Assembly (NCBI RefSeq): GCF_003018255.1 | Contig: NZ_CP027440.1 | Source: Escherichia coli | Lineage (GTDB): Bacteria; Pseudomonadota; Gammaproteobacteria; Enterobacterales; Enterobacteriaceae | Direction: 5' to 3' (one strand) | DNA: 64,000 nt | Shown here: positions 5,031 to 57,798 of the stretch, in pieces | Layout of the letters: each line of letters opens with the position of its first letter | Position numbering within the stretch: the stretch's first letter is position 1 | Notes under the pieces: model-generated | Told to the model about the DNA's origin: nothing | Database searches by the model: none | What the model saw: only the letters and a program-made list of their open reading frames with translations | Position numbers and translations under genes: made by a program

Positions 5031-6563
5031 TTACAGATTTCCCATTCTCGGCGGGCAACGTTCCAGCAACTCGACGCTGCCGTCTTCGTTTTGCTGTTCC
5101 AGCATTACATCAAATCCCCACAGGCGATGCACATGCTTCAGTACTTCTTTGCGCCCCCGATCTAGCGGTGCGCGATTATGTGGAATGTAACGCAGCGTCA
5201 GCGAACGGTCGCCGCGCAAATCCACGTTCCAGATCTGAATATTCGGCTCCAGATTACTTAAATTATATTGAGACGATAACCGGTTACGGATCTCCCGATA
5301 ACCTTCTTCATTATGAATAGCGGAAATCTCCAGATAATTATGCCGATCGTCATCCAGCACGGTGAAGAAGCGGAAATCACGCATCACTTTCGGTGACAGG
5401 AACTGGCTGATAAAACTCTCATCTTTGAAATCACGCATCGCGAAATGCAGCGTTTCCAGCCAGTCGGAACCGGCGATATCCGGGAACCAGTATTTGTCTT
5501 CTTCCGTTGGCGACTGACAAATCCGTTTAATATCCTGGAACATGGCGAACCCGAGGGCATACGGGTTGATGCCGCTGTACCACGGGCTGTTATAGGGTGG
5601 CTGGAAGACCACATTGGTGTGGCTGTGCAAAAACTCCAGCATAAAACGTTCCGTTACTTTCCCTTCATCATACAGATGGTTAAGGATGGTGTAGTGCCAG
5701 AAGGTCGCCCAGCCTTCGTTCATCACCTGAGTCTGTTTTTGCGGATAAAAATACTGGCTCACCTTACGCACAATACGCAGAATTTCACGCTGCCATGATT
5801 CCAGCAGTGGCGCATTTTTCTCCATAAAATAGAGCAGGTTTTCTTGTGGCTCGGACGGATAGCGGCGCGCTTCAGCAACCGTTTTCTCTTCCTCGCGCTT
5901 CGGCAGGGTACGCCAGAGCATATTGACCTGACTTTGCAGATACTCTTCGCGACTTTTCTGCCGGGCTTTCTCTTCTTGCAGCGAGATTTTTTGCGGGCGT
6001 TTGTACCGGTCCACGCCGTAGTTCATCAGCGCGTGGCACGAGTCCAGAAGCCGTTCTACTTCATCAACGCCATAACGTTCTTCGCACTCGGTAATATATT
6101 TACGGGCAAAAATCAGATAATCGACAATCGAACTGGCGTCGGTCCAGCTACGGAATAAGTAATTGTTTTTGAAGAAAGAGTTATGCCCATAGCAGGCGTG
6201 TGCCATCACCAGCGCTTGCATGGTAATGGTGTTTTCTTCCATCAGGTAAGCGATACACGGGTTAGAGTTAATGACGATTTCATAGGCCAGTCCTTGCTGA
6301 CCGTGCTTATACAGCCGTTCAGTCTCGATAAACTTTTTACCGAATGACCAGTGCGGATAGTTAATTGGCATGCCGACGCTGGAGTAGGCATCCATCATCT
6401 GTTCTGAGGTTATCACTTCAATCTGGTGCGGGTAGGTATCCAGCCGGTAGAGTTTCGCCACCCGGTCTATCTCTGCCAGATAAACATCCAGCAGGTCGAA
6501 CGTCCAGTCGGGTCCATCGCTCAAACGTGTGGTGTCCTTATTCATAGAATCGATCGTCGCCAT
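5031..6563 (-). CDS. ycgB: YcgB, SpoVR-family protein
   Basis: 510-aa ORF recognised as the conserved enterobacterial YcgB at its usual place between fadR and dadA. Confidence 0.85.
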   Translation of the reverse strand: MATIDSMNKDTTRLSDGPDWTFDLLDVYLAEIDRVAKLYRLDTYPHQIEVITSEQMMDAYSSVGMPINYPHWSFGKKFIETERLYKHGQQGLAYEIVINSNPCIAYLMEENTITMQALVMAHACYGHNSFFKNNYLFRSWTDASSIVDYLIFARKYITECEERYGVDEVERLLDSCHALMNYGVDRYKRPQKISLQEEKARQKSREEYLQSQVNMLWRTLPKREEEKTVAEARRYPSEPQENLLYFMEKNAPLLESWQREILRIVRKVSQYFYPQKQTQVMNEGWATFWHYTILNHLYDEGKVTERFMLEFLHSHTNVVFQPPYNSPWYSGINPYALGFAMFQDIKRICQSPTEEDKYWFPDIAGSDWLETLHFAMRDFKDESFISQFLSPKVMRDFRFFTVLDDDRHNYLEISAIHNEEGYREIRNRLSSQYNLSNLEPNIQIWNVDLRGDRSLTLRYIPHNRAPLDRGRKEVLKHVHRLWGFDVMLEQQNEDGSVELLERCPPRMGNL

Positions 6564-15995: not shown

Positions 15996-16020
15996 AGAAT
16001 AAATTCCGTTTAACAAAGAA

Positions 16021-16875
16021 TTAAATAGAGGCTGCGGGTTGCAGACTGACTTTAATGTCAGCTGGTGTCGCGTAATAAGGCGCGGAGGTAATAAAAAGGC
16101 GAATGCCGCAGTCGAGGTAATTTTTGAGTGTTGTCAGATTAATTCCGCCGGTCAGAGCCAGCGTGCAGTGAGGAGCCAGCGACGGTGCTATTTGCGCAAT
16201 TTCAGTTGCCTGTTGCGGATTAAATTTGTCGAGCTGAAGTACGTCTGGTTGCGCGCGTAACGCGGCGATTGCCTCTTTCGGCGTGTCGGCTTCAACAACT
16301 ATTTTCTTCTCGGGTGCGTGGCGGCGTAACTGATTGATTGCGCCTGACCAGTCCTGATTGTCATGAAGAAAATGACGGTGGTTGGCAAACAATAATATGG
16401 TTTCCGCACATCCGGCACGATGAATCAGTCCTCCGGCAGCCAGAATTGCCTGCGAGGCCAGTAAGCGGGTGCCCGGAATTGCTTTTCGGGTGCAGGCGAT
16501 ATTGCCATCAGGGTAACGTTCACGAAGTAACGCCAGCATTTGAGCGAGATAATCAGAAACACCGCAACTCCACTCCAGCACATTCTGGACTGCCTTCCAT
16601 CCCTGATGAAGTGCTGCGGCATTACCCTGCGCACGGATTAGCCGCTGACCCGCGTTCGCTTGTGAACCGTCGCTGACTGCGTCATCAATAGTTAATCCCA
16701 GCGTAGTTAACATCTTACACGCGACAGAAATTCCGCTGACGCAGCCGCCCTGACGGTGAAAAAACTCTATATAGCCATGCTGGTGTCCAATATTTAATGC
16801 TCGCGTGGTCAGGTCACCGCCCTGGATATCTTCCAGAAGTAACGCATCGATTTGTGCCTGAGAAAGGAAAATCAT
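16021..16875 (-). CDS. ModD / NadC-like (quinolinate phosphoribosyltransferase family) protein
   Basis: 284-aa ORF with blocks that align by eye to E. coli NadC (LLEDIQGGDLTT; TRKAIPGTRLLASQAILAAGG..NHR; VEADTPKEA..LQLDKF; LALTGGINLTTL); 4-nt ATGA overlap with the upstream methyltransferase gene. Confidence 0.75.
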   Translation of the reverse strand: MIFLSQAQIDALLLEDIQGGDLTTRALNIGHQHGYIEFFHRQGGCVSGISVACKMLTTLGLTIDDAVSDGSQANAGQRLIRAQGNAAALHQGWKAVQNVLEWSCGVSDYLAQMLALLRERYPDGNIACTRKAIPGTRLLASQAILAAGGLIHRAGCAETILLFANHRHFLHDNQDWSGAINQLRRHAPEKKIVVEADTPKEAIAALRAQPDVLQLDKFNPQQATEIAQIAPSLAPHCTLALTGGINLTTLKNYLDCGIRLFITSAPYYATPADIKVSLQPAASI

Positions 16876-17684
16876 CGCAGTGCCTCTTGCGGTACGCTAT
16901 CCCACCAGATGAGCGCCCAGTCGCGGCTGGCAGGGGCGAGGGCACGAGCATCTTGTTGTTGATACCAGCGATATAACCGCTCACGCTCATCGTCGTTAAG
17001 CGCGCCCAGACTCCAGCTGACGTTCTGCTCAAAACGTTCCCAGGTGCTGTTATCCTGTTGGCAATTTTGTCCGCGGATAAAATCAACGTGAGCATAAATT
17101 CCCATCTGATACAGGACGTTGAGCGCAAAGATATAGTTGGGTAATTCGACCACTTCCCGACCAGCCGCCCGCTGAATGGCTGGAGAGACGAACGAGGTGC
17201 TGACCAGATGAGTCGTATAGACGCGAAGCCGTGCCTGATTATTCAGTTTGCTCATTGCCTGGCGCATATCAGCCACCAGAGTGGAGCGGGAAGCCACGGC
17301 AATATCGCAGCGTGGCAGGTCACTCCAGTCCTCTTCCCAGGCGCGCTGGATCCAGTGGACATTGTCTGCCTTTAGCGCGGCGGCGCGACGGGCGGCAACG
17401 TTCAGCATCCCCTGACTGTAATCAACGCCATAAATCGTCGTGAGTTTGTCCGCCAGCGCCAGCGATACGGTACCCGGTCCGCAGCCCATATCGAATAAGG
17501 TTTGCGCGCCTTGCAGGTCAATTTTTGAGGTCAGTTGTTGCAGGTAGCTGTCCGTCGGCGAGGCGCAATTTTCCGCCATTTTTTCCGCCCGTTGATCCCA
17601 GTGATCCGGCGTTTTTTCTGTGCGATGGGCCAGCCTGAGTTGCTGAAGGTAAAGGTCTGCAAAATCAATATCGTCAATGAGCAT
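16872..17684 (-). CDS. Class I SAM-dependent methyltransferase
   Basis: 270-aa ORF with Rossmann motif I LFDMGCGPGTVSLALA and a downstream acidic motif (VDYSQGML); operonic between the ABC ATPase and the ModD-like gene. Confidence 0.75.
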   Translation of the reverse strand: MLIDDIDFADLYLQQLRLAHRTEKTPDHWDQRAEKMAENCASPTDSYLQQLTSKIDLQGAQTLFDMGCGPGTVSLALADKLTTIYGVDYSQGMLNVAARRAAALKADNVHWIQRAWEEDWSDLPRCDIAVASRSTLVADMRQAMSKLNNQARLRVYTTHLVSTSFVSPAIQRAAGREVVELPNYIFALNVLYQMGIYAHVDFIRGQNCQQDNSTWERFEQNVSWSLGALNDDERERLYRWYQQQDARALAPASRDWALIWWDSVPQEALR

Positions 17685-17693
17685 GATTTTTCC

Positions 17694-18452
17694 TTAGTGC
17701 TTAATTGCAGAGAGGTGATGGTGAATCTGGTCGGCAGAAACCCGGTACAGGGCAGCCAGTTTTTTCGTTGTTAACTGTTCGGTCGGTAAGCCTTGTGTTA
17801 CTCGTCCATCTGGCTCTACCTGGATAATGCTGTCGGCAATGGCGTTTGCATGGAGCGGATGATGAGTCGACATTAACATTGTCATGCCGTTATTTTTGAG
17901 CTGCGCCAGCGTGTCCAGAAGTTGGATCTGATGACCGAAATCGAGGCTAGAGGCAGGCTCATCCAGTAATAACAAGCGCGGTTGCTGGACGAGTGCACGG
18001 GCGATTAAAGCCAGCTGACGTTCACCGCCGCTAAGCGTATTCCAGCGTCGTGTCGCCAGATGCAAAATGCCCAGCTTTTCCAGTTGCTCCGTTGCTTTCA
18101 GGCGTTCTTGCTTACCGGGAACGGAAAAAGCGCCTATGGTGGGGGCCTGGCCCATCAACACCATATCCAGCACACTAAAAGCAAAAATGCCGTCGTGCGC
18201 CTGCGGCACCCAGGCAATAGCCTGCGCGCGCTGGCGATGGCTGAGTGTCTGCACAGGGAGGCTATCCAGTAAGATCTCGCCTTTTAATAACGGTATAACG
18301 CCAAGAATGGAGCGCATGAGTGTGGTTTTGCCGCAACCATTGGCTCCTAACAGACAACAAATTGTTCCTTGCGACAGGGTGAAGGACACGTCGCGTAGCA
18401 CCGGATGGCGGGAGTAACCCAGAGACGCATGACGGACGGCAAGCAAAGTCAC
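17694..18452 (-). CDS. ABC transporter ATP-binding protein (FecE/FepC-like)
   Basis: Walker A GANGCGKTT, ABC signature LSGGERQ and Walker B LLLLDEP are present; start assigned to GTG in a GTGA overlap with the permease stop (the track ORF is extended to 18590). Confidence 0.8.
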   Translation of the reverse strand: MTLLAVRHASLGYSRHPVLRDVSFTLSQGTICCLLGANGCGKTTLMRSILGVIPLLKGEILLDSLPVQTLSHRQRAQAIAWVPQAHDGIFAFSVLDMVLMGQAPTIGAFSVPGKQERLKATEQLEKLGILHLATRRWNTLSGGERQLALIARALVQQPRLLLLDEPASSLDFGHQIQLLDTLAQLKNNGMTMLMSTHHPLHANAIADSIIQVEPDGRVTQGLPTEQLTTKKLAALYRVSADQIHHHLSAIKH

Positions 18453-19429
18453 TGGCGACCTCCGCGTAACAACAAAAACAGGAAAAACGGTGCGCCAACA
18501 AAAGCGGTCAGAATGCCAAGTGGGATTTCTGTTGTTCCAATGCTGCGTGCCAGCGTATCGGTAAGCAGGAGCAGAATCGCGCCAGTACACATTGCCATGG
18601 GCAACAGCTGCTGATGGTTATGACCGGTCAACAAGCGGGCAATGTGCGGAACGACCAGGCCGACCCAACCAATTATGCCCGCTATTGCTACCGTGCTGGC
18701 GGTGATGAGTGTGGCACAGACAATCAATCCAAAGCGCAGACGTGTCACGTTCAGTCCCAGCGAACGGGCTTCGTCGTCGGAAAGCGTGAGTAAATTCATG
18801 CGCCAGCGGAGAAAAAACAGGGGCAAGGAGCCTATGAGAATGATCGGTGCAGCATAGCAGAGATCGCGTAAGGTCACGGTGGACAGCCCCCCCAGCAACC
18901 AGAAGGTAATTGACGGTAACTGGGTATAAGGATCGGCCAGCGTTTTTATTAGCGATATCCCCGCTCCGCACAACGTTCCTAACGCAATGCCTACCAGCAC
19001 CAGGGTTAAGATCGGATCGTGGCGGGTCACCCGACGCGTAATCAACCAGACGCCCGCGACCACCATCAGCCCGCCGCAAAATGCGTACAGCTGGATGTAA
19101 ACAATGGATAATCCCCACAGGATTGCCGCGCAGGCACCAAGTCCGGCACCGGCGGAGACGCCTAAAATATCCGGTGACACTAAGGGATTACGGAACATTC
19201 CCTGATAGGTGGTTCCGGCCCCTGCCAGCGCCGCGCCCAGAAACAGCGCAGCAAGAATACGCGGCACGCGGATTTGCCAGAAGACAATTTGTTCCTGCAC
19301 AGTAACATTTTCTTGACGAAGAATGAGCGCCAGCAGTTGCTGCATATCGAGATGATAAGCCCCACTTACGGCGGCAAAAGTGATACTGATAGCTGCCAGC
19401 AGCAAAATACATCCGTTTACGGTTCTCAT
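18449..19429 (-). CDS. ABC transporter permease (FecCD/BtuC family)
   Basis: 326-aa polytopic membrane protein typical of iron-chelate/B12-type permeases; start overlaps the stop of the upstream binding-protein gene by 1 nt. Confidence 0.8.
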   Translation of the reverse strand: MRTVNGCILLLAAISITFAAVSGAYHLDMQQLLALILRQENVTVQEQIVFWQIRVPRILAALFLGAALAGAGTTYQGMFRNPLVSPDILGVSAGAGLGACAAILWGLSIVYIQLYAFCGGLMVVAGVWLITRRVTRHDPILTLVLVGIALGTLCGAGISLIKTLADPYTQLPSITFWLLGGLSTVTLRDLCYAAPIILIGSLPLFFLRWRMNLLTLSDDEARSLGLNVTRLRFGLIVCATLITASTVAIAGIIGWVGLVVPHIARLLTGHNHQQLLPMAMCTGAILLLLTDTLARSIGTTEIPLGILTAFVGAPFFLFLLLRGGRQ

Positions 19430-20451
19430 TAGCTCGCCACCAATTTTTGATAGTCGGCGTCACTTAATGGGCAATGCCAGAACAGTTGGGCGTAATGCTG
19501 CATGTCACTTTTAAACTGGCGATTGATGGCGGGATCCAGCCAGGCGTGAAGTCTGCGTAATCCCAGAAGACGGTTGATTCCCGGCGGGGCATCCAGCCAG
19601 CCAAAGGGCAGGCCACTTAAAAATAAGATGCGTTGTTCCGCAACCGCTTTCACGCCCTGCCAGAGAGGATCACGACGAATAAAATCTGCAGTAACGGCCT
19701 CCTGAACCAGAATAATATCCGGCTGCCAGCGCAGGAGATTTTCCATGGAAACCTGTGTCAGACCGTGGCGATCGGCTATTTGCGCGACGTTGTGCAAACC
19801 TAATAATTCCGCCGCCTCGGTATGCAACGAACCCTGTAAGCCCGTTTCCAGCCCTCGAGGACCGCGCGCAGCATAAAAGCTGAGATTAGCGGCGGGTGAG
19901 GTGGCGAATGCCTGAGCTTCACCAACGAAGCGGCTGGCGAGATTGGCTTGTTCTGCGGCGCGGTGCTCTTCGCCTAACGTTTTGCCAAGCGTTGTTAACT
20001 GTTCTGCTGATTGTTCCAGTTTCCCGTTAAGCAATAACCAGGGTATTTGTGTCTGTTCGCTAACCTGCCGTGCCTGGGAGATCCAGGTTTCATCCGTATT
20101 GCCGCAATCAACGACCAAATCGGGATGTAACGCCATAAGCCCTTCCAGCGAGAGTGTACTGGCGCGCCCGGCGAGTCGTCCCAGCCTGGGGAACTGGCGA
20201 ATGTGCTCTGGCAATGGAATTAATGCCTGACGGGCAAAATCAAAAGAGGAAAAACCGACCATTTTTTCTGGCGCGACAGCCAGCAATAGTAAATCGGCGG
20301 GCGCGCCTGCGCTGACGATGCGTGTAATGTTTTGGGCTTCGGGAAGCGTCAGTGAGGCCCAGAATTTGACTGATTGTGCAAAGGACGGCAGATGATGCAG
20401 GAACAATGTCGACGCAAGAATCTGTGTAAACCTCCGTCTGGTTAGTGACAT
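19429..20451 (-). CDS. Periplasmic substrate-binding protein (class III, FecB/BtuF-like)
   Basis: Signal peptide MSLTRRRFTQILASTLFLHHLPSFA with a twin-arginine-like TRRRF; start chosen at the Met preceded by AGGA 7 nt upstream; first gene of the operon. Confidence 0.75.
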   Translation of the reverse strand: MSLTRRRFTQILASTLFLHHLPSFAQSVKFWASLTLPEAQNITRIVSAGAPADLLLLAVAPEKMVGFSSFDFARQALIPLPEHIRQFPRLGRLAGRASTLSLEGLMALHPDLVVDCGNTDETWISQARQVSEQTQIPWLLLNGKLEQSAEQLTTLGKTLGEEHRAAEQANLASRFVGEAQAFATSPAANLSFYAARGPRGLETGLQGSLHTEAAELLGLHNVAQIADRHGLTQVSMENLLRWQPDIILVQEAVTADFIRRDPLWQGVKAVAEQRILFLSGLPFGWLDAPPGINRLLGLRRLHAWLDPAINRQFKSDMQHYAQLFWHCPLSDADYQKLVAS

Positions 20452-20463
20452 AAGTAATATCCT

Positions 20464-20482
20464 GATAATTAAAACCGCTATA
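20464..20482 (-). promoter_or_regulatory. Candidate Fur box upstream of the accessory transport operon
   Basis: GATAATTAAAACCGCTATA matches about 13 of 19 positions of the Fur consensus GATAATGATAATCATTATC by hand alignment; a TTGACA hexamer lies further upstream on the operon strand. Confidence 0.3.
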
Positions 20483-20787
20483 TACTTACACATATAGCGA
20501 AAAAGATCATGTTTGATGTCAAAATTTGTCTAAAGAGACGGAATGATTTGCTTGTTGCTTAAATAACACTTTGTTCCACAAGAAAATTGTCAGGGAGAAT
20601 GGGGAGTGGGGGAAAATATAAATAGAGGTGTAATGATTAACAAGTTGATAAAATAAAATTAAAATCTTCTCTAATAAAAGAAAATAAAGGCATAGACCGT
20701 AGAAAGAGTGGTATTTGGTATTTCGTGGTGAAGAAAGAGCAATGCCAATTTTATGCACGTAATGGCATTGCTCGATATACAGTAAAG

Positions 20788-22485
20788 TTAAGGCGTAGGT
20801 TCCGCCTCATTTTGTTTTACCGGCTGTGTTGTTGATTCACTGAGTGGACGCGTCGCCGGAACATTGTCGCACGGTTGCTCTTTCGGGCAGATCAAATCCA
20901 GCATTTTCAGCGTCACGCCATTGGTCCAGCCAAAGCCATCCTGTAATGGATATTCGCCACCGCCGCCCCCTGTTCCGGTGGTGCTGACATCATATTTTTC
21001 CACCAGCTTTTTCTCCCGGTCATAGGTGTGCTGAACATTGGTCAGGAAGTGCCAGCTAATGTCCATCGCCACCTCTTTTTGCCCGTAGTTTTGTAATCCT
21101 TCTGTCGCGACCCACTGCAACGGTGCCCAGCCGTTTGGCGCATCCCATTGTTGCCCACTTTTCACCGACGTGGTGTTCAGGCCGCCTGGTTGCAGCAGAT
21201 GTGTTTTCGTCGCCGTCGCCATTTTGCTGGCGCGATCTTTCGCTGCCGCATTGACGTACAGCGGGAACAGGGCGGCCGCGGTTAACTGATTGCGCACTTT
21301 ATGACTTTTCAGGTCGTAATCGGCATACCAGCCTTGTTGATCGTTCCACAGGTATTTTTCGATCCCTTTTTGACGGGCATTCGCCAGCGTTTCGTACTGG
21401 TTTGCCATCGCGTTATCTCCGGCAGCTTTGCTGGCGCGGGCGAGGATTTTTTCCATTTTAAACATCAGGCTGTTCAGATCGACCGGTACGATGCTGGTGG
21501 TGCGTAAGGTATTTAACTGCTGCGGATTGTCCATCCAGCGCGAGCTGAAATCCCAGCCAGACGCAGCGGCAGAGCGCAGGTCGCGGTAAATTTCAGTGGC
21601 AGGTCGATTCGGATTGCTTTTGGCGGTGGCAATATCTTCCACCCATGACTCTGGTCGTGGCGTATCGCGATCGTCCCAGTAGCGGTTGAGAAGGGTACCA
21701 TCCTGAAGTTTGACAACGCGTTTTTCCTGTTGTCCGGCTTGCAGGTTTTCAACACCGTCCATCCAGTAAGCATATTCTTTTTGCATTTGCGGCAGGTATT
21801 GCTTCAACGCGGCATCGCCTTCATGCTGCGCCAGTAACTCTACCATCAGGGCAAAGAATGGCGGTTGTGAGCGGCTTAAATAGTAACTGCGGTTGCCGTT
21901 GGGAATATGCCCGTAAGTGTCTATTTCATGAGCAAAATTGGCCACCATATCCGCGACTTTATCCCAGTGACCACTTTCGGCAAGCCCTAACATGGTGAAG
22001 TAACTGTCCCAGTAATATACCTCGCGAAAACGTCCGCCCGGCACAACATAAGGTTCCGGCAGCGGTAACAGAGAATCCCATTTTTCGGTATTTTCGGTAG
22101 AACGCGTTAATACCGGCCAAAGTCCGTCAATATGTTCGCGTAGTGATTGCCCCTCTGGCGGAACATATTTCTCGCCCTCTTTCGGCAGGGTGAAATTGAC
22201 GTTAACGAAATGGCGTAGATCAAATCCGCTCTGGTTTTGCTGCATCCGATAATCAGCAAGGATCATCAGCGGATCGCTGTTCGGCACGGCATCGGCAAAG
22301 GTTTTTTGGTCCGGAAAAAGTTTGGCGTTTTGCACATCATTAAACAGCGGCCCTAATAAAATATCAGGCGGCTGTGGCGTTACCGGTGTTTCTTCTGCCT
22401 GCACCGATAGCGCAGCGAAACACAAAAAGATGCAGGCTGGAATTAACGCCATTTTTAGCGGGCGAGAAGCTGCGGGGGATTTCAT
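20788..22485 (-). CDS. treA: Periplasmic trehalase
   Basis: 565-aa ORF recognised as TreA (signal peptide, then [22 protein letters not shown]). Confidence 0.95.
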
Positions 22486-26175: not shown

Positions 26176-28095
26176 ATGAGTAGCGCTTTTAACAACGATG
26201 GTCGGGACATATCTCCCTTAATTGCAACCTCCTGGGAGCGATGCATTAAGCTGATGAAACGGGATACATGGAACGTACCACACCAGGCCCAGGGCGTGAC
26301 ATTTGCGTCTATTTATCGGCGTAAGAAAGCGATGCTGACGCTCGGGCAGGCTGCGCTGGAAGATGCCTGGGAATATATGGCACCGCGAGCGTGTGCGCTG
26401 CTTATCCTCGATGAAACCGCCTGCATTCTCAGCCGTAATGGCGATCCGCAAACCTTGCAGCAACTAAGTGCACTGGGATTCAATGACGGCACGTATTGCG
26501 CCGAGGGAATTATTGGTACTTGTGCGCTATCGTTAGCGGCTATCTCTGGTCAGGCCGTGAAAACGATGGCCGATCAACATTTCAAACAGGCACTCTGGAA
26601 CTGGGCCTTTTGTGCAACGCCGTTGTTTGACAGCAAGGGCCGATTGACGGGAACAATAGCGCTGGCGTGTCCGGTTGAGCAAACTACCGCAGCTGATTTG
26701 CCGTTGACGTTGGCAATCGCACGCGAGGTCGGAAATTTACTGCTGACGGACAGTTTGCTCGCTGAAACTAACCGTCATTTAAATCAACTTAATGCCCTGT
26801 TAGAAAGTATGGATGATGGCGTGATTAGCTGGGACGAGCAGGGTAATTTGCAATTTATTAATGCCCAGGCGGCGCGGGTCTTACGCCTTGACGCGACGGC
26901 AAGTCAGGGACGGGCAATCACTGAACTCTTAACGTTACCCGCCGTATTGCAACAAGCAATAAAACAGGCACATCCGCTCAAACACGTAGAAGCAACCTTT
27001 GAAAGCCAGCACCAGTTTATTGATGCGGTGATAACCCTTAAACCGATAATAGAAACGCAGGGAACCAGCTTTATTTTGTTGCTCCATCCTGTGGAACAGA
27101 TGCGGCAGTTAATGACCAGTCAATTAGGAAAAGTCAGCCATACTTTCGCTCATATGCCACAAGAGGATCCGCAAACCCGCCGTTTGATTCATTTTGGTCG
27201 CCAGGCGGCGCGCAGTAGCTTTCCTGTCCTGCTTTGTGGAGAAGAGGGCGTGGGCAAGGCACTGCTAAGTCAGGCAATTCATAATGAAAGTGAGCGTGCA
27301 GCAGGGCCTTATATCGCCGTCAATTGTGAGTTATATGGTGATGCGGCGCTGGCGGAAGAATTTATTGGCGGCGATCGCACGGACAATGAAAATGGTCGTT
27401 TGAGTCGACTGGAACTGGCGCACGGCGGCACGCTGTTTCTTGAAAAGATTGAATATCTGGCGGTGGAGTTACAGTCTGCTTTGCTTCAGGTTATCAAGCA
27501 GGGTGTTATCACGCGACTGGATGCGCGGCGTTTAATACCCATTGATGTCAAAGTGATTGCCACAACGACCGCGGACCTGGCAATGCTGGTGGAACAAAAT
27601 CGTTTTAGTCGCCAGCTGTATTACGCGCTGCATGCATTTGAAATTACCATCCCGCCTCTGCGTATGCGGCGTGGCAGCATTCCGGCGCTGGTGAATAACA
27701 AATTACACAGTCTTGAAAAACGCTTCTCTACGCGGCTGAAAATTGATGACGATGCCCTCGCTCGCCTGGTTTCCTGTGCATGGCCTGGCAACGATTTTGA
27801 ACTTTACAGCGTCATCGAGAATCTTGCTCTGAGTAGTGATAACGGGCGCATTCGCGTCAGTGATTTACCTGAACATCTCTTTACCGAGCAGGCGACAGAT
27901 GATGTCAGCGCCACTCGCCTTTCCACCAGTCTGTCATTTGCGGAAGTTGAAAAAGAGGCAATTATTAACGCAGCCCAGGTCACAGGCGGTCGCATTCAGG
28001 AAATGTCGGCTTTACTTGGAATCGGCCGCACTACGCTGTGGCGGAAAATGAAGCAACATGGCATTGATGCAGGGCAGTTTAAGCGCCGTGGATAG
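26176..28095 (+). CDS. dhaR: DhaR, sigma-54-type AAA+ transcriptional activator of dhaKLM
   Basis: 639-aa ORF with GAF/PAS N-terminal region, an AAA+ core with a degenerate Walker A (GEEGVGKAL, Thr replaced by Ala) and a C-terminal Fis-type HTH; divergent from dhaK. Confidence 0.9.
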   Translation: MSSAFNNDGRDISPLIATSWERCIKLMKRDTWNVPHQAQGVTFASIYRRKKAMLTLGQAALEDAWEYMAPRACALLILDETACILSRNGDPQTLQQLSALGFNDGTYCAEGIIGTCALSLAAISGQAVKTMADQHFKQALWNWAFCATPLFDSKGRLTGTIALACPVEQTTAADLPLTLAIAREVGNLLLTDSLLAETNRHLNQLNALLESMDDGVISWDEQGNLQFINAQAARVLRLDATASQGRAITELLTLPAVLQQAIKQAHPLKHVEATFESQHQFIDAVITLKPIIETQGTSFILLLHPVEQMRQLMTSQLGKVSHTFAHMPQEDPQTRRLIHFGRQAARSSFPVLLCGEEGVGKALLSQAIHNESERAAGPYIAVNCELYGDAALAEEFIGGDRTDNENGRLSRLELAHGGTLFLEKIEYLAVELQSALLQVIKQGVITRLDARRLIPIDVKVIATTTADLAMLVEQNRFSRQLYYALHAFEITIPPLRMRRGSIPALVNNKLHSLEKRFSTRLKIDDDALARLVSCAWPGNDFELYSVIENLALSSDNGRIRVSDLPEHLFTEQATDDVSATRLSTSLSFAEVEKEAIINAAQVTGGRIQEMSALLGIGRTTLWRKMKQHGIDAGQFKRRG

Positions 28096-28131
28096 CGGGA
28101 GAGTATGTACTTTCCCGCTATGAATTGCTAA

Positions 28132-28308
28132 TTAATAGCGACCATGACTGCCGTGATTTGGTCCACCATTTGAAGGTGGCATTGGCTTACCGGAGGGCGC
28201 AGGACCACGAGGGCCATCGCTGTGGCGGTGATGATGGTGGGGAACACAAGCACTTAACAGGCTCGCAAAGACAATTGCTAACAGGCTGAAGGTAAATGTT
28301 TTTTTCAT
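28132..28308 (-). CDS. Small putative lipoprotein, His/Pro/Gly-rich (58 aa)
   Basis: MKKTFTFSLLAIVFASLLSAC with an LSAC lipobox, then CVPHHHHRHSDGPRGPAPSGKPMPPSNGGPNHGSHGRY; sits in the dhaR-ychF gap where I recall ycgV in K-12. Confidence 0.4.
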   Translation of the reverse strand: MKKTFTFSLLAIVFASLLSACVPHHHHRHSDGPRGPAPSGKPMPPSNGGPNHGSHGRY

Positions 28309-28498
28309 GACAAACTCTTGAACGGTTAATGCACTGTGATTGTTATCACATAAAAGGCACATTGTTAATATTGCCAGGAGTCTGATTATGATTTTCGATA
28401 ACTCAGAATTGAAAGAAGCCGCGTAGCAGGCGTAAAAAAGCCATTATGTGCGACTCACATAATGGCTCATTATTAACCGTCAGGGTATTACGTGGAAT

Positions 28499-40848: not shown

Positions 40849-40945
40849 CATGGGGGCCGGATACAAAAAGGGCCGCAGGCTGTTACCCCTGCGGCCGGTT
40901 TCGGGCGCATATTGCCATCACGGCAGCCTGACGCCCGTTTTCGCC

Positions 40946-41053
40946 TTACTTCCGGTTACGCCACCAGCCGACAATCGCTGCGGTAATAATTCCCGCCAGG
41001 ATCGGTGCTGCCAGGTCGTGCCAGAAAATCACGGTAAACTGCGCGAGCGTCAT
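40946..41053 (-). CDS. ldr: Ldr-family type I toxin peptide (35 aa)
   Basis: Hand translation of the minus strand gives MTLAQFTVIFWHDLAAPILAGIITAAIVGWWRNRK, nearly identical to the LdrA/LdrC peptides as I remember them; below the ORF-track length cutoff. Confidence 0.8.
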   Translation of the reverse strand: MTLAQFTVIFWHDLAAPILAGIITAAIVGWWRNRK

Positions 41054-41099
41054 ATAGCCGCCTTGTTGTAATGACAACATTTTGCGGCTATTCTTGAAT

Positions 41100-41167
41100 T
41101 GTTCTGGTTCAAGATTAGCCCCCGTTCTGTTGTCAGGTTATACCTCTCAACGTGCGGGGGTTTTCTC
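41100..41167 (+). ncRNA. rdl: Rdl-type antisense RNA (antitoxin of Ldr)
   Basis: Sequence ...TTCAAGATTAGCCCCCGTTCTGTTGTCAGG...ACGTGCGGGGGTTTTCTC matches remembered Rdl RNAs, including the terminal GC hairpin and U-tract; lies antisense to the ldr leader. Ends are approximate. Confidence 0.55.
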
Positions 41168-41457
41168 TTTCCAGCAACCAATGCCACCAGGGATAAAGCC
41201 CCCGCAACATTGCGCCTCACCGGATAACGCCGGCTTGGTGTGGATACTACGACTCAATTCATCTTCACTTCATCCCTGAAATGTTTGCAATGAAGAGTGC
41301 ATTCCGGTTTTTCAACAGCTGTTACAGTCGTTTCGTGCAGGTTGTGGTTCAGGCTCGCAATTCTGATTAACAACCTGTCCAGGTAGTATGAAGAAATACA
41401 ATAAGCAGGAATTTATATTATCTCCCCCGATTTCCGTCATCGGAGGAGATATAACTG

Positions 41458-48328: not shown

Positions 48329-48593
48329 GTAAACCTCTTCCTTCAGGCTTTAAATGAGCAATAACCTTAATGAATGTGACGATACATTCTGGAATGGCAG
48401 TATTCTCGGCTATTGGCTGAAGTATACCCATACCCGGAAAGAGTTACTCCTTATTTGCCGTGTGGTTAGTCGCTTTACATCGGTAAGGGTAGGGATTTTA
48501 CAGCACCGTGAAAAATCTCATAATTTTTATGAAATCACTGTACTCACTATGGATAATGATAAATATCAATGATAGATAAAGTTATCTTATCGT

Positions 48594-48607
48594 TTGATTT
48601 ACATCAA
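48594..48607 (+). promoter_or_regulatory. FNR box in the narK promoter
   Basis: TTGAT-TTAC-ATCAA is a perfect match to the FNR consensus TTGAT-N4-ATCAA, about 60 nt upstream of the narK start. Confidence 0.75.
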
Positions 48608-48666: not shown

Positions 48667-50058
48667 ATGAGTCACTCATCCGCCCCCGAAAGGGCTACTG
48701 GAGCTGTCATTACAGATTGGCGACCGGAAGATCCTGCGTTCTGGCAACAACGCGGTCAACGTATTGCCAGCCGCAACCTGTGGATTTCCGTTCCCTGTCT
48801 GTTGCTGGCGTTTTGCGTATGGATGTTGTTCAGCGCTGTTGCGGTGAACTTACCGAAAGTCGGTTTTAATTTTACGACCGATCAGCTATTTATGTTGACT
48901 GCGCTGCCTTCGGTTTCTGGCGCGTTATTACGTGTTCCATACTCCTTTATGGTTCCTATCTTTGGTGGTCGTCGCTGGACGGCGTTCAGCACCGGTATTC
49001 TGATTATTCCTTGCGTCTGGCTGGGTTTTGCCGTGCAGGATACCTCCACGCCTTATAGCGTCTTCATCATCATTTCTCTGCTGTGCGGCTTTGCTGGCGC
49101 GAACTTCGCATCCAGTATGGCAAACATCAGCTTCTTCTTTCCGAAACAGAAGCAGGGTGGCGCGCTGGGTCTGAATGGTGGTCTGGGCAACATGGGCGTC
49201 AGCGTCATGCAGTTGGTTGCTCCGCTGGTGGTATCACTGTCGATTTTCGCAGTATTTGGTAGCCAGGGCGTCAAACAGCCGGATGGGACTGAGCTGTATC
49301 TGGCGAATGCGTCCTGGATATGGGTGCCGTTCCTTGCCATCTTCACCATTGCGGCGTGGTTTGGCATGAACGATCTTGCTACCTCGAAAGCCTCCATCAA
49401 GGAGCAGTTGCCGGTACTCAAACGGGGTCATCTGTGGATTATGAGCCTGCTGTATCTGGCAACCTTCGGCTCCTTCATCGGCTTCTCCGCGGGCTTTGCG
49501 ATGCTGTCAAAAACGCAGTTCCCGGATGTTCAGATTCTGCAATACGCTTTCTTCGGGCCGTTTATTGGTGCGCTGGCGCGTTCTGCAGGTGGTGCATTAT
49601 CTGACCGTCTGGGCGGAACTCGTGTCACTCTGGTGAACTTTATCCTGATGGCGATTTTCAGCGGCCTGCTGTTCCTGACCTTACCGACTGACGGACAGGG
49701 CGGAAGCTTCATGGCGTTCTTCGCAGTCTTCCTGGCGCTGTTCCTGACCGCTGGGCTGGGTAGTGGTTCCACTTTCCAGATGATTTCCGTGATCTTCCGT
49801 AAACTGACAATGGATCGTGTGAAAGCAGAAGGGGGTTCTGACGAACGTGCGATGCGTGAAGCGGCAACCGACACGGCGGCGGCGCTGGGTTTCATCTCTG
49901 CGATTGGCGCGATTGGTGGCTTCTTTATCCCGAAAGCGTTTGGTAGCTCGCTGGCATTAACGGGTTCGCCAGTCGGCGCAATGAAAGTATTTTTGATTTT
50001 CTATATCGCCTGCGTGGTGATTACCTGGGCGGTATATGGTCGGCATTCTAAAAAATAA
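48667..50058 (+). CDS. narK: NarK, nitrate/nitrite antiporter (MFS)
   Basis: 463 aa from MSHSSAPERATGAVITDWRPEDPAFWQQRGQR; 12-TM MFS protein. Confidence 0.95.
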   Translation: MSHSSAPERATGAVITDWRPEDPAFWQQRGQRIASRNLWISVPCLLLAFCVWMLFSAVAVNLPKVGFNFTTDQLFMLTALPSVSGALLRVPYSFMVPIFGGRRWTAFSTGILIIPCVWLGFAVQDTSTPYSVFIIISLLCGFAGANFASSMANISFFFPKQKQGGALGLNGGLGNMGVSVMQLVAPLVVSLSIFAVFGSQGVKQPDGTELYLANASWIWVPFLAIFTIAAWFGMNDLATSKASIKEQLPVLKRGHLWIMSLLYLATFGSFIGFSAGFAMLSKTQFPDVQILQYAFFGPFIGALARSAGGALSDRLGGTRVTLVNFILMAIFSGLLFLTLPTDGQGGSFMAFFAVFLALFLTAGLGSGSTFQMISVIFRKLTMDRVKAEGGSDERAMREAATDTAAALGFISAIGAIGGFFIPKAFGSSLALTGSPVGAMKVFLIFYIACVVITWAVYGRHSKK

Positions 50059-50182
50059 ATCGTAATATTTGATTATCCTTTGCGCGGCATGATGTCGCGC
50101 TTTTTTTATGCGTCATTTAGTTACAACATACTAATGTTGTATGGCTTATTTCGCTGGATTTCATTAAGAGTCATTAATATGT

Positions 50183-50212
50183 TACCCATGGGGAATACTC
50201 CTTAATACCCAT
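50183..50212 (+). promoter_or_regulatory. NarL heptamer region of the narG upstream activating sequence
   Basis: Two TACCCAT heptamers (50183..50189 and 50206..50212) about 200 nt upstream of the FNR box, consistent with the known NarL site architecture at narG. Confidence 0.6.
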
Positions 50213-50345
50213 CTGCATAAAAATCTTAATAGTTTAAATAACTACAGGTATAAAACGTCTTAATTTACAGCGTGTTATGCCGTAACCGCTAATTATCCTA
50301 AAGGGGTATCTTAGGAATTTACTTTATTTTTCATCCCCATCACTC

Positions 50346-50359
50346 TTGATCGTTATCAA
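50346..50359 (+). promoter_or_regulatory. FNR box in the narG promoter
   Basis: TTGAT-CGTT-ATCAA is a perfect FNR consensus, about 95 nt upstream of the narG start codon. Confidence 0.8.
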
Positions 50360-50450
50360 TTCTCACGCTGTTTCAGAGCGTTACCTTGCCCTTAAACATT
50401 AGCAATGTCGATTTATCAGAGGGCCGACAGGCTCCCACAGGAGAAAACCG

Positions 50451-53400
50451 ATGAGTAAATTCCTGGACCGGTTTCGCTACTTCAAACAGAAGGGTGAAAC
50501 CTTTGCCGATGGGCATGGCCAGCTTCTCAATACCAACCGTGACTGGGAGGATGGATATCGCCAGCGTTGGCAGCATGACAAAATCGTCCGCTCTACCCAC
50601 GGGGTAAACTGCACCGGCTCCTGCAGCTGGAAAATCTACGTCAAAAACGGTCTGGTGACCTGGGAAACCCAGCAGACTGACTATCCGCGTACTCGCCCGG
50701 ACCTGCCAAACCATGAACCTCGCGGCTGCCCGCGCGGTGCCAGCTACTCCTGGTATCTTTACAGCGCCAACCGCCTGAAATACCCAATGATGCGCAAACG
50801 CCTGATGAAAATGTGGCGTGAAGCGAAGGCGCTGCATAGCGATCCGGTTGAGGCATGGGCTTCTATCATTGAAGACGCCGATAAAGCGAAAAGCTTTAAG
50901 CAGGCGCGTGGACGCGGTGGTTTTGTTCGTTCTTCCTGGCAGGAAGTGAATGAACTGATCGCCGCCTCTAACGTTTACACCATCAAAAACTACGGCCCGG
51001 ACCGCGTCGCTGGCTTCTCGCCAATTCCGGCAATGTCGATGGTTTCTTACGCATCGGGTGCACGCTATCTTTCGCTGATTGGCGGTACTTGCTTAAGCTT
51101 CTACGACTGGTACTGCGACCTGCCTCCTGCGTCTCCGCAAACCTGGGGCGAGCAAACTGACGTACCGGAATCTGCTGACTGGTACAACTCCAGCTACATC
51201 ATCGCCTGGGGTTCAAACGTGCCGCAGACGCGTACCCCGGATGCTCACTTCTTTACTGAAGTGCGTTACAAAGGCACCAAAACTGTTGCCGTCACACCAG
51301 ACTACGCTGAAATCGCCAAACTGTGCGATCTGTGGCTGGCACCGAAACAGGGCACCGATGCGGCAATGGCGCTGGCGATGGGCCACGTAATGCTGCGTGA
51401 ATTCCACCTCGACAACCCAAGCCAGTATTTCACCGACTATGTGCGCCGCTACACCGACATGCCGATGCTGGTGATGCTGGAAGAGCGCGACGGTTACTAC
51501 GCTGCGGGTCGTATGCTGCGCGCTGCTGATCTGGTGGATGCGCTGGGCCAGGAAAACAATCCGGAATGGAAAACTGTCGCCTTTAATACCAATGGCGAAA
51601 TGGTTGCGCCGAACGGTTCTATTGGCTTCCGCTGGGGCGAGAAGGGCAAATGGAATCTTGAGCAGCGCGACGGCAAAACTGGCGAAGAAACCGAGCTGCA
51701 ACTGAGCCTGCTGGGTAGCCAGGATGAGATCGCTGAGGTGGGCTTCCCGTACTTTGGTGGCGATGGCACGGAACACTTCAACAAAGTGGAACTGGAAAAC
51801 GTGCTGCTGCATAAGCTGCCGGTGAAACGCCTGCAACTGGCTGATGGCAGCACCGCCCTGGTGACCACCGTTTATGATCTGACGCTGGCAAACTACGGTC
51901 TGGAACGTGGCCTGAACGACGTTAACTGTGCAACCAGCTATGACGATGTGAAAGCTTACACCCCTGCCTGGGCAGAGCAGATTACCGGCGTTTCTCGCAG
52001 CCAGATTATTCGCATCGCCCGTGAATTTGCCGATAACGCTGATAAAACGCACGGTCGTTCGATGATTATCGTCGGCGCTGGGCTGAACCACTGGTATCAC
52101 CTGGACATGAACTATCGTGGTCTGATCAACATGCTGATTTTCTGCGGTTGTGTCGGTCAGAGCGGGGGCGGCTGGGCGCACTATGTAGGTCAGGAAAAAC
52201 TGCGTCCGCAAACCGGCTGGCAGCCGCTGGCGTTTGCCCTCGACTGGCAGCGTCCGGCGCGTCACATGAACAGTACCTCTTATTTCTATAACCACTCCAG
52301 CCAGTGGCGTTATGAAACCGTGACTGCGGAAGAACTGCTGTCGCCGATGGCGGATAAATCTCGCTATACCGGACACTTGATCGACTTTAACGTCCGTGCA
52401 GAACGCATGGGCTGGCTGCCGTCTGCGCCGCAGTTAGGCACTAACCCGCTGACTATCGCTCGCGAAGCAGAAAAAGCCGGGATGAATCCGGTGGACTATA
52501 CGGTGAAATCCCTGAAAGAGGGTTCTATCCGTTTCGCTGCGGAACAGCCGGAAAACGGTAAAAACCACCCGCGTAATCTGTTCATCTGGCGTTCTAACCT
52601 GCTCGGTTCTTCCGGTAAAGGTCATGAGTTTATGCTCAAGTACCTGCTGGGGACGGAGCACGGTATCCAGGGCAAAGACCTGGGGCAGCAGGGCGGCGTG
52701 AAGCCGGAAGAAGTGGACTGGCAGGACAACGGTCTGGAAGGCAAGCTGGATCTGGTGGTGACGCTGGACTTCCGTCTGTCGAGCACCTGTCTCTATTCCG
52801 ACATCATTTTGCCGACGGCGACCTGGTACGAAAAAGACGATATGAATACTTCGGATATGCATCCGTTTATTCACCCGCTGTCTGCGGCGGTCGATCCGGC
52901 CTGGGAAGCGAAAAGCGACTGGGAAATCTACAAAGCCATCGCGAAGAAATTCTCCGAAGTGTGCGTTGGTCATCTGGGTAAAGAAACTGACATCGTCACG
53001 CTGCCTATCCAGCACGACTCTGCCGCTGAACTGGCGCAACCGCTGGATGTGAAAGACTGGAAAAAAGGCGAATGCGACCTGATCCCAGGTAAAACTGCAC
53101 CGCACATTATGGTCGTAGAGCGCGATTATCCAGCAACTTACGAACGCTTTACCTCTATCGGCCCGCTGATGGAGAAAATCGGTAACGGCGGTAAAGGGAT
53201 TGCCTGGAACACCCAGAGCGAGATGGATCTGCTGCGTAAGCTCAACTACACCAAAGCGGAAGGTCCGGCAAAAGGCCAGCCGATGCTCAATACCGCAATT
53301 GATGCGGCAGAGATGATCCTGACGCTGGCACCGGAAACCAATGGTCAGGTAGCTGTAAAAGCCTGGGCTGCCCTGAGCGAGTTTACCGGCCGTGACCATA

Positions 53401-54194
53401 CGCATCTGGCGCTGAATAAAGAAGACGAGAAGATTCGCTTCCGCGATATTCAGGCACAGCCGCGCAAAATCATCTCCAGCCCGACATGGTCTGGCCTTGA
53501 AGATGAACACGTTTCTTACAACGCCGGTTACACCAACGTTCACGAGCTGATCCCGTGGCGTACGCTCTCTGGCCGTCAGCAGCTGTATCAGGATCACCAA
53601 TGGATGCGTGATTTCGGTGAAAGCCTGCTGGTTTATCGTCCGCCGATCGACACCCGTTCGGTGAAAGAAGTGATGGGCCAGAAATCCAATGGCAACCCGG
53701 AAAAAGCGCTCAACTTCCTGACGCCACACCAGAAGTGGGGTATCCACTCCACCTACAGCGACAACCTGCTGATGCTGACTTTAGGTCGCGGTGGTCCGGT
53801 GGTCTGGCTGAGTGAAGCCGATGCCAAAGAGCTGGGTATCGCCGATAACGACTGGATTGAAGTCTTCAACAGCAACGGTGCACTGACTGCCCGTGCGGTT
53901 GTCAGCCAGCGTGTTCCGGCAGGGATGACCATGATGTACCACGCGCAGGAACGTATCGTTAACCTGCCTGGTTCGGAAATTACCCAACAGCGTGGTGGTA
54001 TCCATAACTCGGTCACCCGTATCACGCCGAAACCGACGCATATGATCGGCGGCTATGCCCATCTGGCATATGGCTTTAACTACTACGGCACCGTAGGTTC
54101 TAACCGCGATGAGTTTGTTGTAGTGCGTAAGATGAAGAACATTGACTGGTTAGATGGCGAAGGCAATGACCAGGTACAGGAGAGCGTAAAATGA
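50451..54194 (+). CDS. narG: Respiratory nitrate reductase A, alpha subunit
   Basis: 1247-aa ORF MSKFLDRFRYFKQKGETFADGHGQ with the N-terminal Fe-S motif region (HGVNCTGSCSW). Confidence 0.97.
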   Translation: MSKFLDRFRYFKQKGETFADGHGQLLNTNRDWEDGYRQRWQHDKIVRSTHGVNCTGSCSWKIYVKNGLVTWETQQTDYPRTRPDLPNHEPRGCPRGASYSWYLYSANRLKYPMMRKRLMKMWREAKALHSDPVEAWASIIEDADKAKSFKQARGRGGFVRSSWQEVNELIAASNVYTIKNYGPDRVAGFSPIPAMSMVSYASGARYLSLIGGTCLSFYDWYCDLPPASPQTWGEQTDVPESADWYNSSYIIAWGSNVPQTRTPDAHFFTEVRYKGTKTVAVTPDYAEIAKLCDLWLAPKQGTDAAMALAMGHVMLREFHLDNPSQYFTDYVRRYTDMPMLVMLEERDGYYAAGRMLRAADLVDALGQENNPEWKTVAFNTNGEMVAPNGSIGFRWGEKGKWNLEQRDGKTGEETELQLSLLGSQDEIAEVGFPYFGGDGTEHFNKVELENVLLHKLPVKRLQLADGSTALVTTVYDLTLANYGLERGLNDVNCATSYDDVKAYTPAWAEQITGVSRSQIIRIAREFADNADKTHGRSMIIVGAGLNHWYHLDMNYRGLINMLIFCGCVGQSGGGWAHYVGQEKLRPQTGWQPLAFALDWQRPARHMNSTSYFYNHSSQWRYETVTAEELLSPMADKSRYTGHLIDFNVRAERMGWLPSAPQLGTNPLTIAREAEKAGMNPVDYTVKSLKEGSIRFAAEQPENGKNHPRNLFIWRSNLLGSSGKGHEFMLKYLLGTEHGIQGKDLGQQGGVKPEEVDWQDNGLEGKLDLVVTLDFRLSSTCLYSDIILPTATWYEKDDMNTSDMHPFIHPLSAAVDPAWEAKSDWEIYKAIAKKFSEVCVGHLGKETDIVTLPIQHDSAAELAQPLDVKDWKKGECDLIPGKTAPHIMVVERDYPATYERFTSIGPLMEKIGNGGKGIAWNTQSEMDLLRKLNYTKAEGPAKGQPMLNTAIDAAEMILTLAPETNGQVAVKAWAALSEFTGRDHTHLALNKEDEKIRFRDIQAQPRKIISSPTWSGLEDEHVSYNAGYTNVHELIPWRTLSGRQQLYQDHQWMRDFGESLLVYRPPIDTRSVKEVMGQKSNGNPEKALNFLTPHQKWGIHSTYSDNLLMLTLGRGGPVVWLSEADAKELGIADNDWIEVFNSNGALTARAVVSQRVPAGMTMMYHAQERIVNLPGSEITQQRGGIHNSVTRITPKPTHMIGGYAHLAYGFNYYGTVGSNRDEFVVVRKMKNIDWLDGEGNDQVQESVK

Positions 54195-57293: not shown

Positions 57294-57475
57294 GTGATGG
57301 TGGTGGAGGAAGGATTACTCAGCGCTGCGCGCTTCGCCCTTCGGGTCGTTGCCTGCGGCCACGCTCTCTCGCTGGCGCTCGAGTCGAACCCTGGTCGAAG
57401 CTTCTCATCCTTCCCCGCTTGGGCAGAATATTTAATCGCGGATTCGTTTGAGAGTTCACGGACTTTTGAAAGTGA
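57294..57475 (-). repeat. tyrT-distal 178-bp repeat unit (tpr-type repeat) carrying a degenerate tRNA 3'-end copy
   Basis: AGTGATGGTGGTGG(A/G)GGAAGGATT occurs at 57293 and again at 57471 (178 nt apart); the downstream copy is the true 3' end of the first tRNA-Tyr gene. Confidence 0.6.
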
Positions 57476-57560
<85 letters not shown>

Positions 57561-57594
57561 AGGGGTAATTCAAATTTTGAGGTAATGCTTGAGA

Positions 57595-57679
<85 letters not shown>

Positions 57680-57713
57680 AGGGGTAATTCAAATTTTGAG
57701 GTAATGCTTGAGA

Positions 57714-57798
<85 letters not shown>

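Follow-up and report, generated by a model that had tools for sequence, protein, structure and literature searches.

The narGHJI control region of an Escherichia coli-type chromosome: a K-12-like promoter and a conserved leader box complementary to RyhB

The question raised by the DNA in front of narG is easily put. Does a chromosome from another E. coli lineage still carry, in the right places, everything through which K-12 controls nitrate reductase A, and does it carry anything besides? The DNA in hand is a stretch of 64,000 nucleotides from an E. coli contig (NZ_CP027440.1), which we call the window. An earlier reading of its letters alone, the sequence-only reading, had picked out positions 50160-50450 as a narG control region with the known FNR/NarL/IHF-looped promoter architecture. 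Our analysis supports that description, with the positions and spacing of the elements as in K-12 and in the literature. We have very little doubt that this is the canonical narGHJI control region, from which K-12-like function is to be expected, and that its leader carries a RyhB-complementary box and a hairpin. As a promoter it is already known, being that of K-12 narG found again in a different E. coli-type lineage. The leader is the part that repaid a longer look.

The identity of the locus is plain from the open reading frame map and the K-12 annotation. Positions 50059-50450 are the narK-narG intergenic region of an E. coli-type chromosome, and 50160-50450 the control region of narGHJI. 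The genes in the window run narL-narX / narK-narG-narH-narJ-narI, with narXL adjoining. The window aligns collinearly with positions 1,230,678-1,293,825 of E. coli K-12 MG1655 at 97-98.7% identity, and the 431 bases around the control region find a match in 5,415 of 5,426 complete E. coli genomes, where the neighbors are annotated narK and narG. The narK stop codon ends at 50058 and the narG ATG is at 50451. (Features lie on the plus strand unless we say otherwise.) The narG reading frame, for the alpha subunit of nitrate reductase A, occupies 50451..54194; its 1247-aa product is 99.68% identical to K-12 NarG, and the gene is annotated narG in the matching genomes. Then come narH, narJ, and narI, ending at 57113, their products 99.6-99.8% identical to those of K-12. 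NarL, NarX, NarK, NarG, NarH, NarJ, and NarI all have their K-12 lengths, with identities of 99.56-100% and internal stops absent. The claim that the locus is intact is thereby borne out, narXL, narK, and narGHJI being full length and, to one decimal, 99.6-100% identical to the K-12 proteins. The genes for FNR and IHF (fnr, ihfA/B) are located elsewhere, outside the window.

The intergenic region measures 392 bp in the window against 515 bp in K-12. The difference is a 123-bp insertion that K-12 carries directly after the narK stop codon and that the window, like many other E. coli, is without; recognizing it by eye, we take it to be ERIC-like. The upstream boundary of the control region is the intrinsic terminator of narK (50082..50108), which a terminator scan picked out as an 8-bp GC-rich stem followed by a run of seven Ts and which, on alignment, has the K-12 sequence. 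The same terminator is also the 3' end of NarS, a small RNA from the narK 3'-UTR that is annotated there in K-12 (PMC7038943). An Rfam scan of 50059-50450 at the gathering threshold returned no match, neither to a known leader family nor to a riboswitch, that for Moco included.

Everything downstream of the terminator is best measured from the FNR box. A perfect site, TTGATCGTTATCAA, sits at 50346-50359 (with no strand assigned), exactly where the sequence-only reading had reported one, and K-12 has the same sequence at the same alignment position. The 64-kb window has two copies of its pattern, TTGATNNNNATCAA, where 0.06 would be expected, and none of 100 shuffles reaches that number. The second site falls at 48594-48607, in the interval from narX to narK, which is where one expects the FNR-dependent narK promoter. 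The FNR site of narGHJI has been placed at -41.5 (Myers et al., PMC3688515), and from this the remaining landmarks follow. With the box centered at 50352.5, adding 41.5 puts +1 at 50394, a start transferred from the K-12 literature. The base there is an A, the leader would be 57 nt long, and TACCTT falls at -12 to -7 (50382..50387) as the presumptive -10 hexamer. A center at -41.5 is the class II position, at which the FNR box replaces a -35 element. A sigma-70 consensus scan found no promoter at narG; because a class II promoter is activator dependent, this null is no evidence against there being one.

For a view beyond E. coli we fetched narG loci with a degenerate pattern for the first 13 codons of the gene, which gave 120 loci, mostly from Enterobacterales with a few from Vibrio. 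In 103 of these 120 a TTGA-N6-TCAA box stands 95-160 nt upstream of the narG ATG, and the distance in the window, whose box starts at -105 counted from the ATG, is the one met most often among the fetched loci. One hundred sequences could be anchored on the FNR box. The 53 of them with the same spacing to a NarL heptamer at -195 (see below) were used to score conserved blocks, and an alignment of 16 sequences from nine genera agrees with the blocks so found. The FNR box together with TTCTCAC (-47 to -28) is one such block in the 53 same-spacing species; downstream of it, TTTCAGAGCGTTACCTT (-22 to -5) is 80-90% conserved across species.

NarL is expected to bind heptamers of the form TACYYMT, and the control region has four exact ones. 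Three lie on the same strand far upstream: TACCCAT centered at -208 (50183..50189), which is identical in K-12, TACTCCT at -195 (50196..50202), and a second TACCCAT at -185 (50206..50212). The fourth, TACCCCT, is inverted and lies on the minus strand at -89 (50302..50308). Heptamers with one mismatch occur at -153 and -147. The sequence-only reading had spoken of TACCCAT heptamers about 150 nt upstream of the FNR box. Both copies are present and the distance was roughly right, the heptamer centers lying 143.5 to 166.5 nt upstream of the center of the box; what that reading missed were TACTCCT at -195 and the inverted heptamer at -89. Counted over the whole window, TACYYMT shows no enrichment (38 matches against 29.4 expected, with 8 of 100 shuffles reaching 38). 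The cluster is another matter. Three same-strand matches within 30 nt, as at 50183-50212, turned up in none of 1000 first-order Markov simulations of the window, where the largest cluster was two, seen in 136 runs.

These positions agree with what has been seen biochemically. In K-12, phosphorylated NarL (NarL-P) protects a high-affinity region at -89 and a lower-affinity one at -195, with weaker protection around -150, and the narG promoter is without a 7-2-7 NarL site (Katsir et al., PMC4549865). A later summary of narG lists NarL at -190, IHF at -125, and FNR at -41 (Zere et al., PMC4682653). The exact heptamers at -208/-195/-185 and at -89 coincide with the published footprint regions. The nearest partner of the -89 heptamer is a one-mismatch heptamer at -101, and the two form a 7-5-7 rather than a 7-2-7 arrangement.

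How constrained is each heptamer? Among the 100 anchored sequences, TACYYMT has its center exactly at -195 in 53, and one or two bases further upstream (-196 or -197) in another 16; it is found at -185 in 8 and at -89 in 18. The -208 heptamer is unconserved outside Escherichia, with fewer than 6 of the 100 having it. The block TACYCCTTAATACCC (-198 to -184) is at least 90% conserved in the 53 same-spacing species and is found again in the 16 sequences from nine genera, and GGGGTAT (-93 to -86) is strongly conserved in both sets. The distance from the -195 heptamer to the FNR box is 153.5 bp, center to center. It is exact in 53 of the 100 anchored sequences and within 2 bp in 69, and this retention to the base pair in most relatives fits a looping geometry that depends on helical phase. 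Judged from the alignments, the distal region has its conserved core in the -195 heptamer and the beginning of the one at -185; the two TACCCAT copies that the sequence-only reading had picked out are the less constrained.

The IHF site proved harder to place. A scan for it between the NarL and FNR elements had been proposed together with the sequence-only reading; run with the consensus WATCAANNNNTTR, the scan gives only matches with two or three mismatches, and the site was placed by position and homology instead. The candidate core is TTACAGCGTGTTA, from -129 to -117 and centered at -123 (50265..50277), with an A/T-rich tract upstream of it; IHF at narG has been assigned to -125 (PMC4682653). 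It departs from WATCAANNNNTTR at three of the nine specified positions, the same number as the K-12 core (TTACAGTCTGTTA). Only at 50271-50272, both in the NNNN spacer, does it differ from that core, and the specified bases are identical in the two. A second weak candidate, with two mismatches, lies on the minus strand at 50253-50265.

The relatives make the case for the first candidate. Plus-strand IHF sites with no more than one mismatch are present in 56 of the 100 FNR-anchored sequences, and in 53 of these the site begins between -130 and -128; the same scan of a control zone found one in 95 sequences. The cross-species majority at these positions reads AATCAATAAGTTA, a perfect match to the consensus. 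Seen from the other genera, the putative Escherichia IHF site is a degenerate version of a site that is perfect in many of them. Across Enterobacterales, then, constraint falls on the -195/-185 heptamer pair and the heptamer at -89, on the IHF core and the FNR box, and on the -10 region, but not on the -208 heptamer.

Put together, these elements would work as follows. Transcription would start at about 50394. In anoxia, FNR bound at -41.5 would act in the class II manner, recruiting RNA polymerase without a -35 element. With nitrate present, phospho-NarL would occupy heptamers in two regions, -208/-195/-185 and around -89, and IHF at about -123 would bend the AT-rich DNA in between, so that the distal NarL complex could reach the complex of FNR and RNA polymerase. 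This is the scheme of the orthologous K-12 promoter, with class II FNR, NarL-P from about -200 and -89, and an IHF bend at -125. The promoter in the window shares every one of these elements and spacings with K-12, and it should therefore work as the K-12 promoter does.

Two other promoters help to locate the design. The narK promoter, in the same window, has its own perfect TTGAT-N4-ATCAA box (the copy at 48594-48607), with FNR at -41.5 (PMC3688515), and TACYYMT heptamers at 48425 and 48445; it differs from narG in serving another operon and in the arrangement of its heptamers. The nirB promoter resembles narG in combining class II activation by FNR (-41.5) with NarL and IHF. At nirB, NarL or NarP acts at -69.5 from a 7-2-7 site by anti-repression, displacing IHF and Fis. 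At narG, by contrast, NarL works from a long way upstream and without a 7-2-7 site, with IHF as co-activator.

That leaves the leader, the 57 nt from 50394 to 50450, whose 5' end depends on the start taken over from K-12. It is identical in the window, K-12, E04, and 2014C-3075. Across genera it is better conserved than the upstream promoter and is the best conserved part of the whole region. At its 3' end the Shine-Dalgarno AGGAG (50439..50443) stands 7 nt before the narG ATG within a CAGGAGA that is invariant in 63 leaders. Directly upstream of it is a hairpin, GGGCC-GACA-GGCTC (50421..50434), which appears both in the single-sequence fold and in the RNAalifold consensus of the 63 leaders. 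Hairpins of the form GRGCC-N3-5-GGYTY are found in 72 of 98 leaders, with loops that vary in sequence and length, and more distant genera have different hairpins in the same place. The variants in the stem, as aligned by RNAalifold in the 63 leaders, are all one-sided: five of them, each to a G.U pair, and zero double compensatory changes. The single-sequence fold of the leader is no more stable than those of shuffled sequences (z = -0.22). It also predicts pairing of CAGGAG (50438-50443), over the Shine-Dalgarno, with TTCCTG (50460-50465) in codons 4-5 of narG.

The stretch that stands out lies further upstream. The box AGCAATGTCG, at +8 to +17 (50401..50410), is a perfect Watson-Crick complement, 10 nt long, of nucleotides 37-46 of the small RNA RyhB (read from K-12), within the single-stranded core of RyhB at about nt 35-50. 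Taking the E. coli RyhB sequence for every species, we found perfect complementarity of at least 10 nt in 68 of 98 distinct leaders and of at least 8 nt in 93, nearly all of it to RyhB nt 35-49; shuffled leaders manage this in 0.5% and 6% of cases, respectively. The flanks of the box differ by lineage and extend the pairing accordingly, to RyhB nt 35-46, 36-46, 37-48, 38-48, 39-49, or 40-48. That these lineage-specific extensions track the RyhB sequence is hard to explain except by pairing. The box is unpaired in the centroid fold of the leader.

There is, moreover, a family resemblance. The same 10-mer, TAGCAATGTC, occurs in the narG leader and in the start region of sodB (a sequence found at 100% identity in E. 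coli genomes), where it is presumably the RyhB pairing site of what we take to be a classic RyhB target. Energies add little to the case. The core hybrid comes to -15.7 kcal/mol, matched by 155 of 1000 shuffles, and full-length RyhB-leader duplexfold to -38.3 kcal/mol, matched by 93 of 500, such long duplexes being meaningless. With energies this unexceptional, it is the contiguous match, together with its conservation and the 10-mer shared with sodB, that carries the case for RyhB.

Others have arrived at RyhB and narG from different directions. A ribosome-profiling study lists narG as a RyhB target predicted by TargetRNA2, in the category "predicted," with 2.1-fold repression by Ribo-seq (log2 1.07) and an unchanged RNA level (PMC4666370), and anaerobic transcriptomics made narGHJI an anaerobic RyhB candidate (PMC4676285). 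We found no experimental validation of the narG site in the literature. The RyhB box at narG is thus an already known prediction; its depth of conservation, the 10-mer in common with sodB, and its position may not have been spelled out before.

Position is where narG and sodB part company. The AUG that the box contains serves in sodB as the start codon, so that pairing with RyhB occludes the ribosome. The predicted box in narG, 41-50 nt ahead of the start codon, falls outside a ribosome footprint, and a different mechanism would be needed. Three routes suggest themselves: RyhB might act through a short open reading frame in the leader, on a standby or enhancer site, or by a switch between structures in which the hairpin takes part along with the Shine-Dalgarno paired to codons 4-5. 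RyhB, a small RNA repressed by Fur, would probably add an iron-sparing, post-transcriptional repression.

Might the box at 50401-50410 be conserved for some other reason? It could belong to an upstream open reading frame whose translation is coupled to that of narG, it could be the DNA site of a repressor downstream of +1, or it could be the target of another small RNA. The first of these deserves a proper hearing. The ATG inside the box (at 50405 in the window) is nearly invariant, and here it opens a frame of 17 codons whose stop overlaps codons 2-3 of narG. In 49 leaders the frame ends at a TGA or TAA that overlaps the narG start, and the Shine-Dalgarno folded onto codons 4-5 is just the sort of structure that a ribosome coming from upstream could open. 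The unexceptional energy of the RyhB duplex counts in favor of the alternatives in general. Yet the frame is not maintained. It has 1-9 codons in more than 30 leaders and is fused in frame to narG in 12; the distances modulo 3 are spread over all frames; the ATG has no Shine-Dalgarno before it; and third-codon positions are conserved as much as the others. We rejected a conserved small protein as the main explanation, its length and frame being unconserved. Nor would a peptide or an unrelated protein site predict flanks that follow RyhB lineage by lineage, and the same box recurs at the start of sodB.

Taken as a whole, then, conservation of the box for a reason other than RyhB seems to us rather unlikely, and the strong conservation of the leader is, from the comparisons made here, best explained by a RyhB site. 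The fuller proposal is that the box, conserved across Enterobacterales, would give narG a third input, one that senses iron and is so far only predicted, and that represses translation from outside the ribosome-binding window. We would put the chances of that at about even.

What of the features that are peculiar to this strain? Between the narK terminator and the narG ATG, alignments with K-12 MG1655, E04, and 2014C-3075 show zero indels. The alignment with the K-12 narG promoter, which had been suggested as a check on the sequence-only reading, thus shows undisturbed spacing, the opposite of the disruption that was named as counting against it. Relative to K-12, nothing has changed in the FNR box or the inferred -10 hexamer, in any of the four exact heptamers, at the specified positions of the IHF core, in the Shine-Dalgarno, or anywhere else in the leader. 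Downstream of the terminator and up to the ATG there are 16 point substitutions relative to K-12, none at a consensus-specified position of a known site. Half of them, 8 of 16, cluster within 19 nt at 50271-50289 (-123 to -105). The sole difference in the core promoter is a T for C at -31. The control-region allele as a whole is identical to none of the 5,415 matching E. coli genomes, the best of which reaches 98.6% over 291 nt, and its private substitutions relative to those genomes include -223, -113, and -107.

One could suppose that these changes, among them the cluster between the IHF core and the -89 NarL region, keep the architecture and still alter, measurably, the response to nitrate or IHF compared with K-12. 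Their clustering and the absence of the exact allele from the complete genomes lend the idea some color, as does the NarL-P protection that extends around the -89 region in K-12. The details go against it. From -114 to -105 the clustered substitutions fall where the cross-species alignment is least conserved (majority fraction 0.3-0.6), and ordinary E. coli strains vary there too, which makes them probably neutral polymorphism; both changes in the IHF core sit in the spacer; and the T at -31 is the cross-species majority and is shared with other E. coli strains, so that by this comparison K-12 is the outlier. The private substitutions are put down to a lineage with few representatives among the complete genomes (at best, these match it at 99.2% over 25 kb, 99.5% for narG, and 98.6% for the control region), and they give no reason to think the promoter unusual. 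An altered response strikes us as very improbable. Chance need hardly detain us: AT-rich intergenic DNA (32.8% GC against 51.1% for the window) does favor such motifs, TACYYMT is not enriched window-wide, and the IHF match is weak, but a perfect FNR palindrome at 0.06 expected per window, a three-heptamer cluster that no simulation produced, elements standing at the K-12 base-pair positions where binding has been shown experimentally, and positional conservation over about 100 species effectively refute the view that these motifs are without regulatory meaning.

So we return to the reading with which we began, a canonical narGHJI control region with a box for RyhB in its leader. For this strain, it means that the nitrate-respiration locus is normal and intact, with a control region from which K-12 behavior can be expected. 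For the experimenter, the AGCAATGTCG box is a precise 10-nt target for validation. And for the family, if the RyhB site is real, it would tie the availability of iron to the production of an enzyme dependent on five Fe-S clusters and two haems.

Across the Enterobacterales, the narG mRNA leader (50394-50450) is better conserved in our cross-species comparison than the narG promoter. Within it lies a box of 10 nt (50401-50410) that is perfectly complementary to nucleotides 37-46 of RyhB, the iron-stress sRNA. The narG leader box and the start region of sodB have a 10-mer in common, TAGCAATGTC, which contains the RyhB complement. In the literature, narG is only a predicted RyhB target, with support from Ribo-seq. 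A small conserved hairpin (50421-50434) stands 5' of the narG Shine-Dalgarno sequence. That region itself, CAGGAG (50438-50443), is predicted by a single-sequence fold to pair with TTCCTG at codons 4-5 (50460-50465), placing the narG start codon in the loop that this pairing closes; the pattern used to retrieve relatives fixed codons 4-5, so conservation of this pairing is not informative.

Between narX and narK we came upon a second perfect FNR box, TTGATTTACATCAA (48594-48607), with TACCCAT and TACTCCT heptamers upstream (48425-48451), which places the narK promoter here.

Among 5,426 complete E. coli genomes, the closest reaches 97.9% over the 431-nt intergenic query (50040-50470) and 98.6% over the narG control region (50160-50450); the closest genomes reach 99.5% over narG and 99.2% over the 25 kb from 39001 to 64000. 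The window belongs to a lineage of the E. coli/Shigella clade that is sparsely represented among RefSeq complete genomes. In the E. coli genome collection, 13 of the 5,430 places matching the narK-narG intergenic region fall on records typed as plasmids.

Elsewhere in the window, gene content departs from that of K-12 MG1655 in several places. K-12 lacks a 6.8-kb segment (14049-20827) and has ycgY at the corresponding position. On its minus strand this uptake island, of the iron or siderophore type, encodes a TonB-dependent receptor, a ModD/quinolinate-phosphoribosyltransferase-like protein, a methyltransferase, an ABC ATPase, a FecCD permease and a periplasmic binding protein. The window also has no ycgV, an autotransporter gene of 3.7 kb in K-12; about 410 bp of unmatched sequence (28089-28498) stand in its place. 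Three tRNA genes with identical Rfam scores stand in tandem at 57479-57798, upstream of the RtT element (57298-57429), against two (tyrT and tyrV) in K-12 and in a further E. coli strain, E04; the tyrT repeat unit seems to have expanded in copy number. The ldr/rdl type I toxin-antitoxin repeat is single here (40863-41334, with rdl at 41101-41166) and threefold in K-12 (ldrABC/rdlABC).

One further difference lies immediately 3' of the narK stop codon, where K-12 carries a 123-bp insertion (5350-5472 of the K-12 locus L001; window junction 50058/50059), given as ~170 nt in PMC7038943. By eye it looks ERIC-like. It sits in the narK 3' UTR, the source of the sRNA NarS, and is absent from the window and from many other E. 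coli; without it, NarS in this strain would therefore be expected to take the short, Salmonella-like form.
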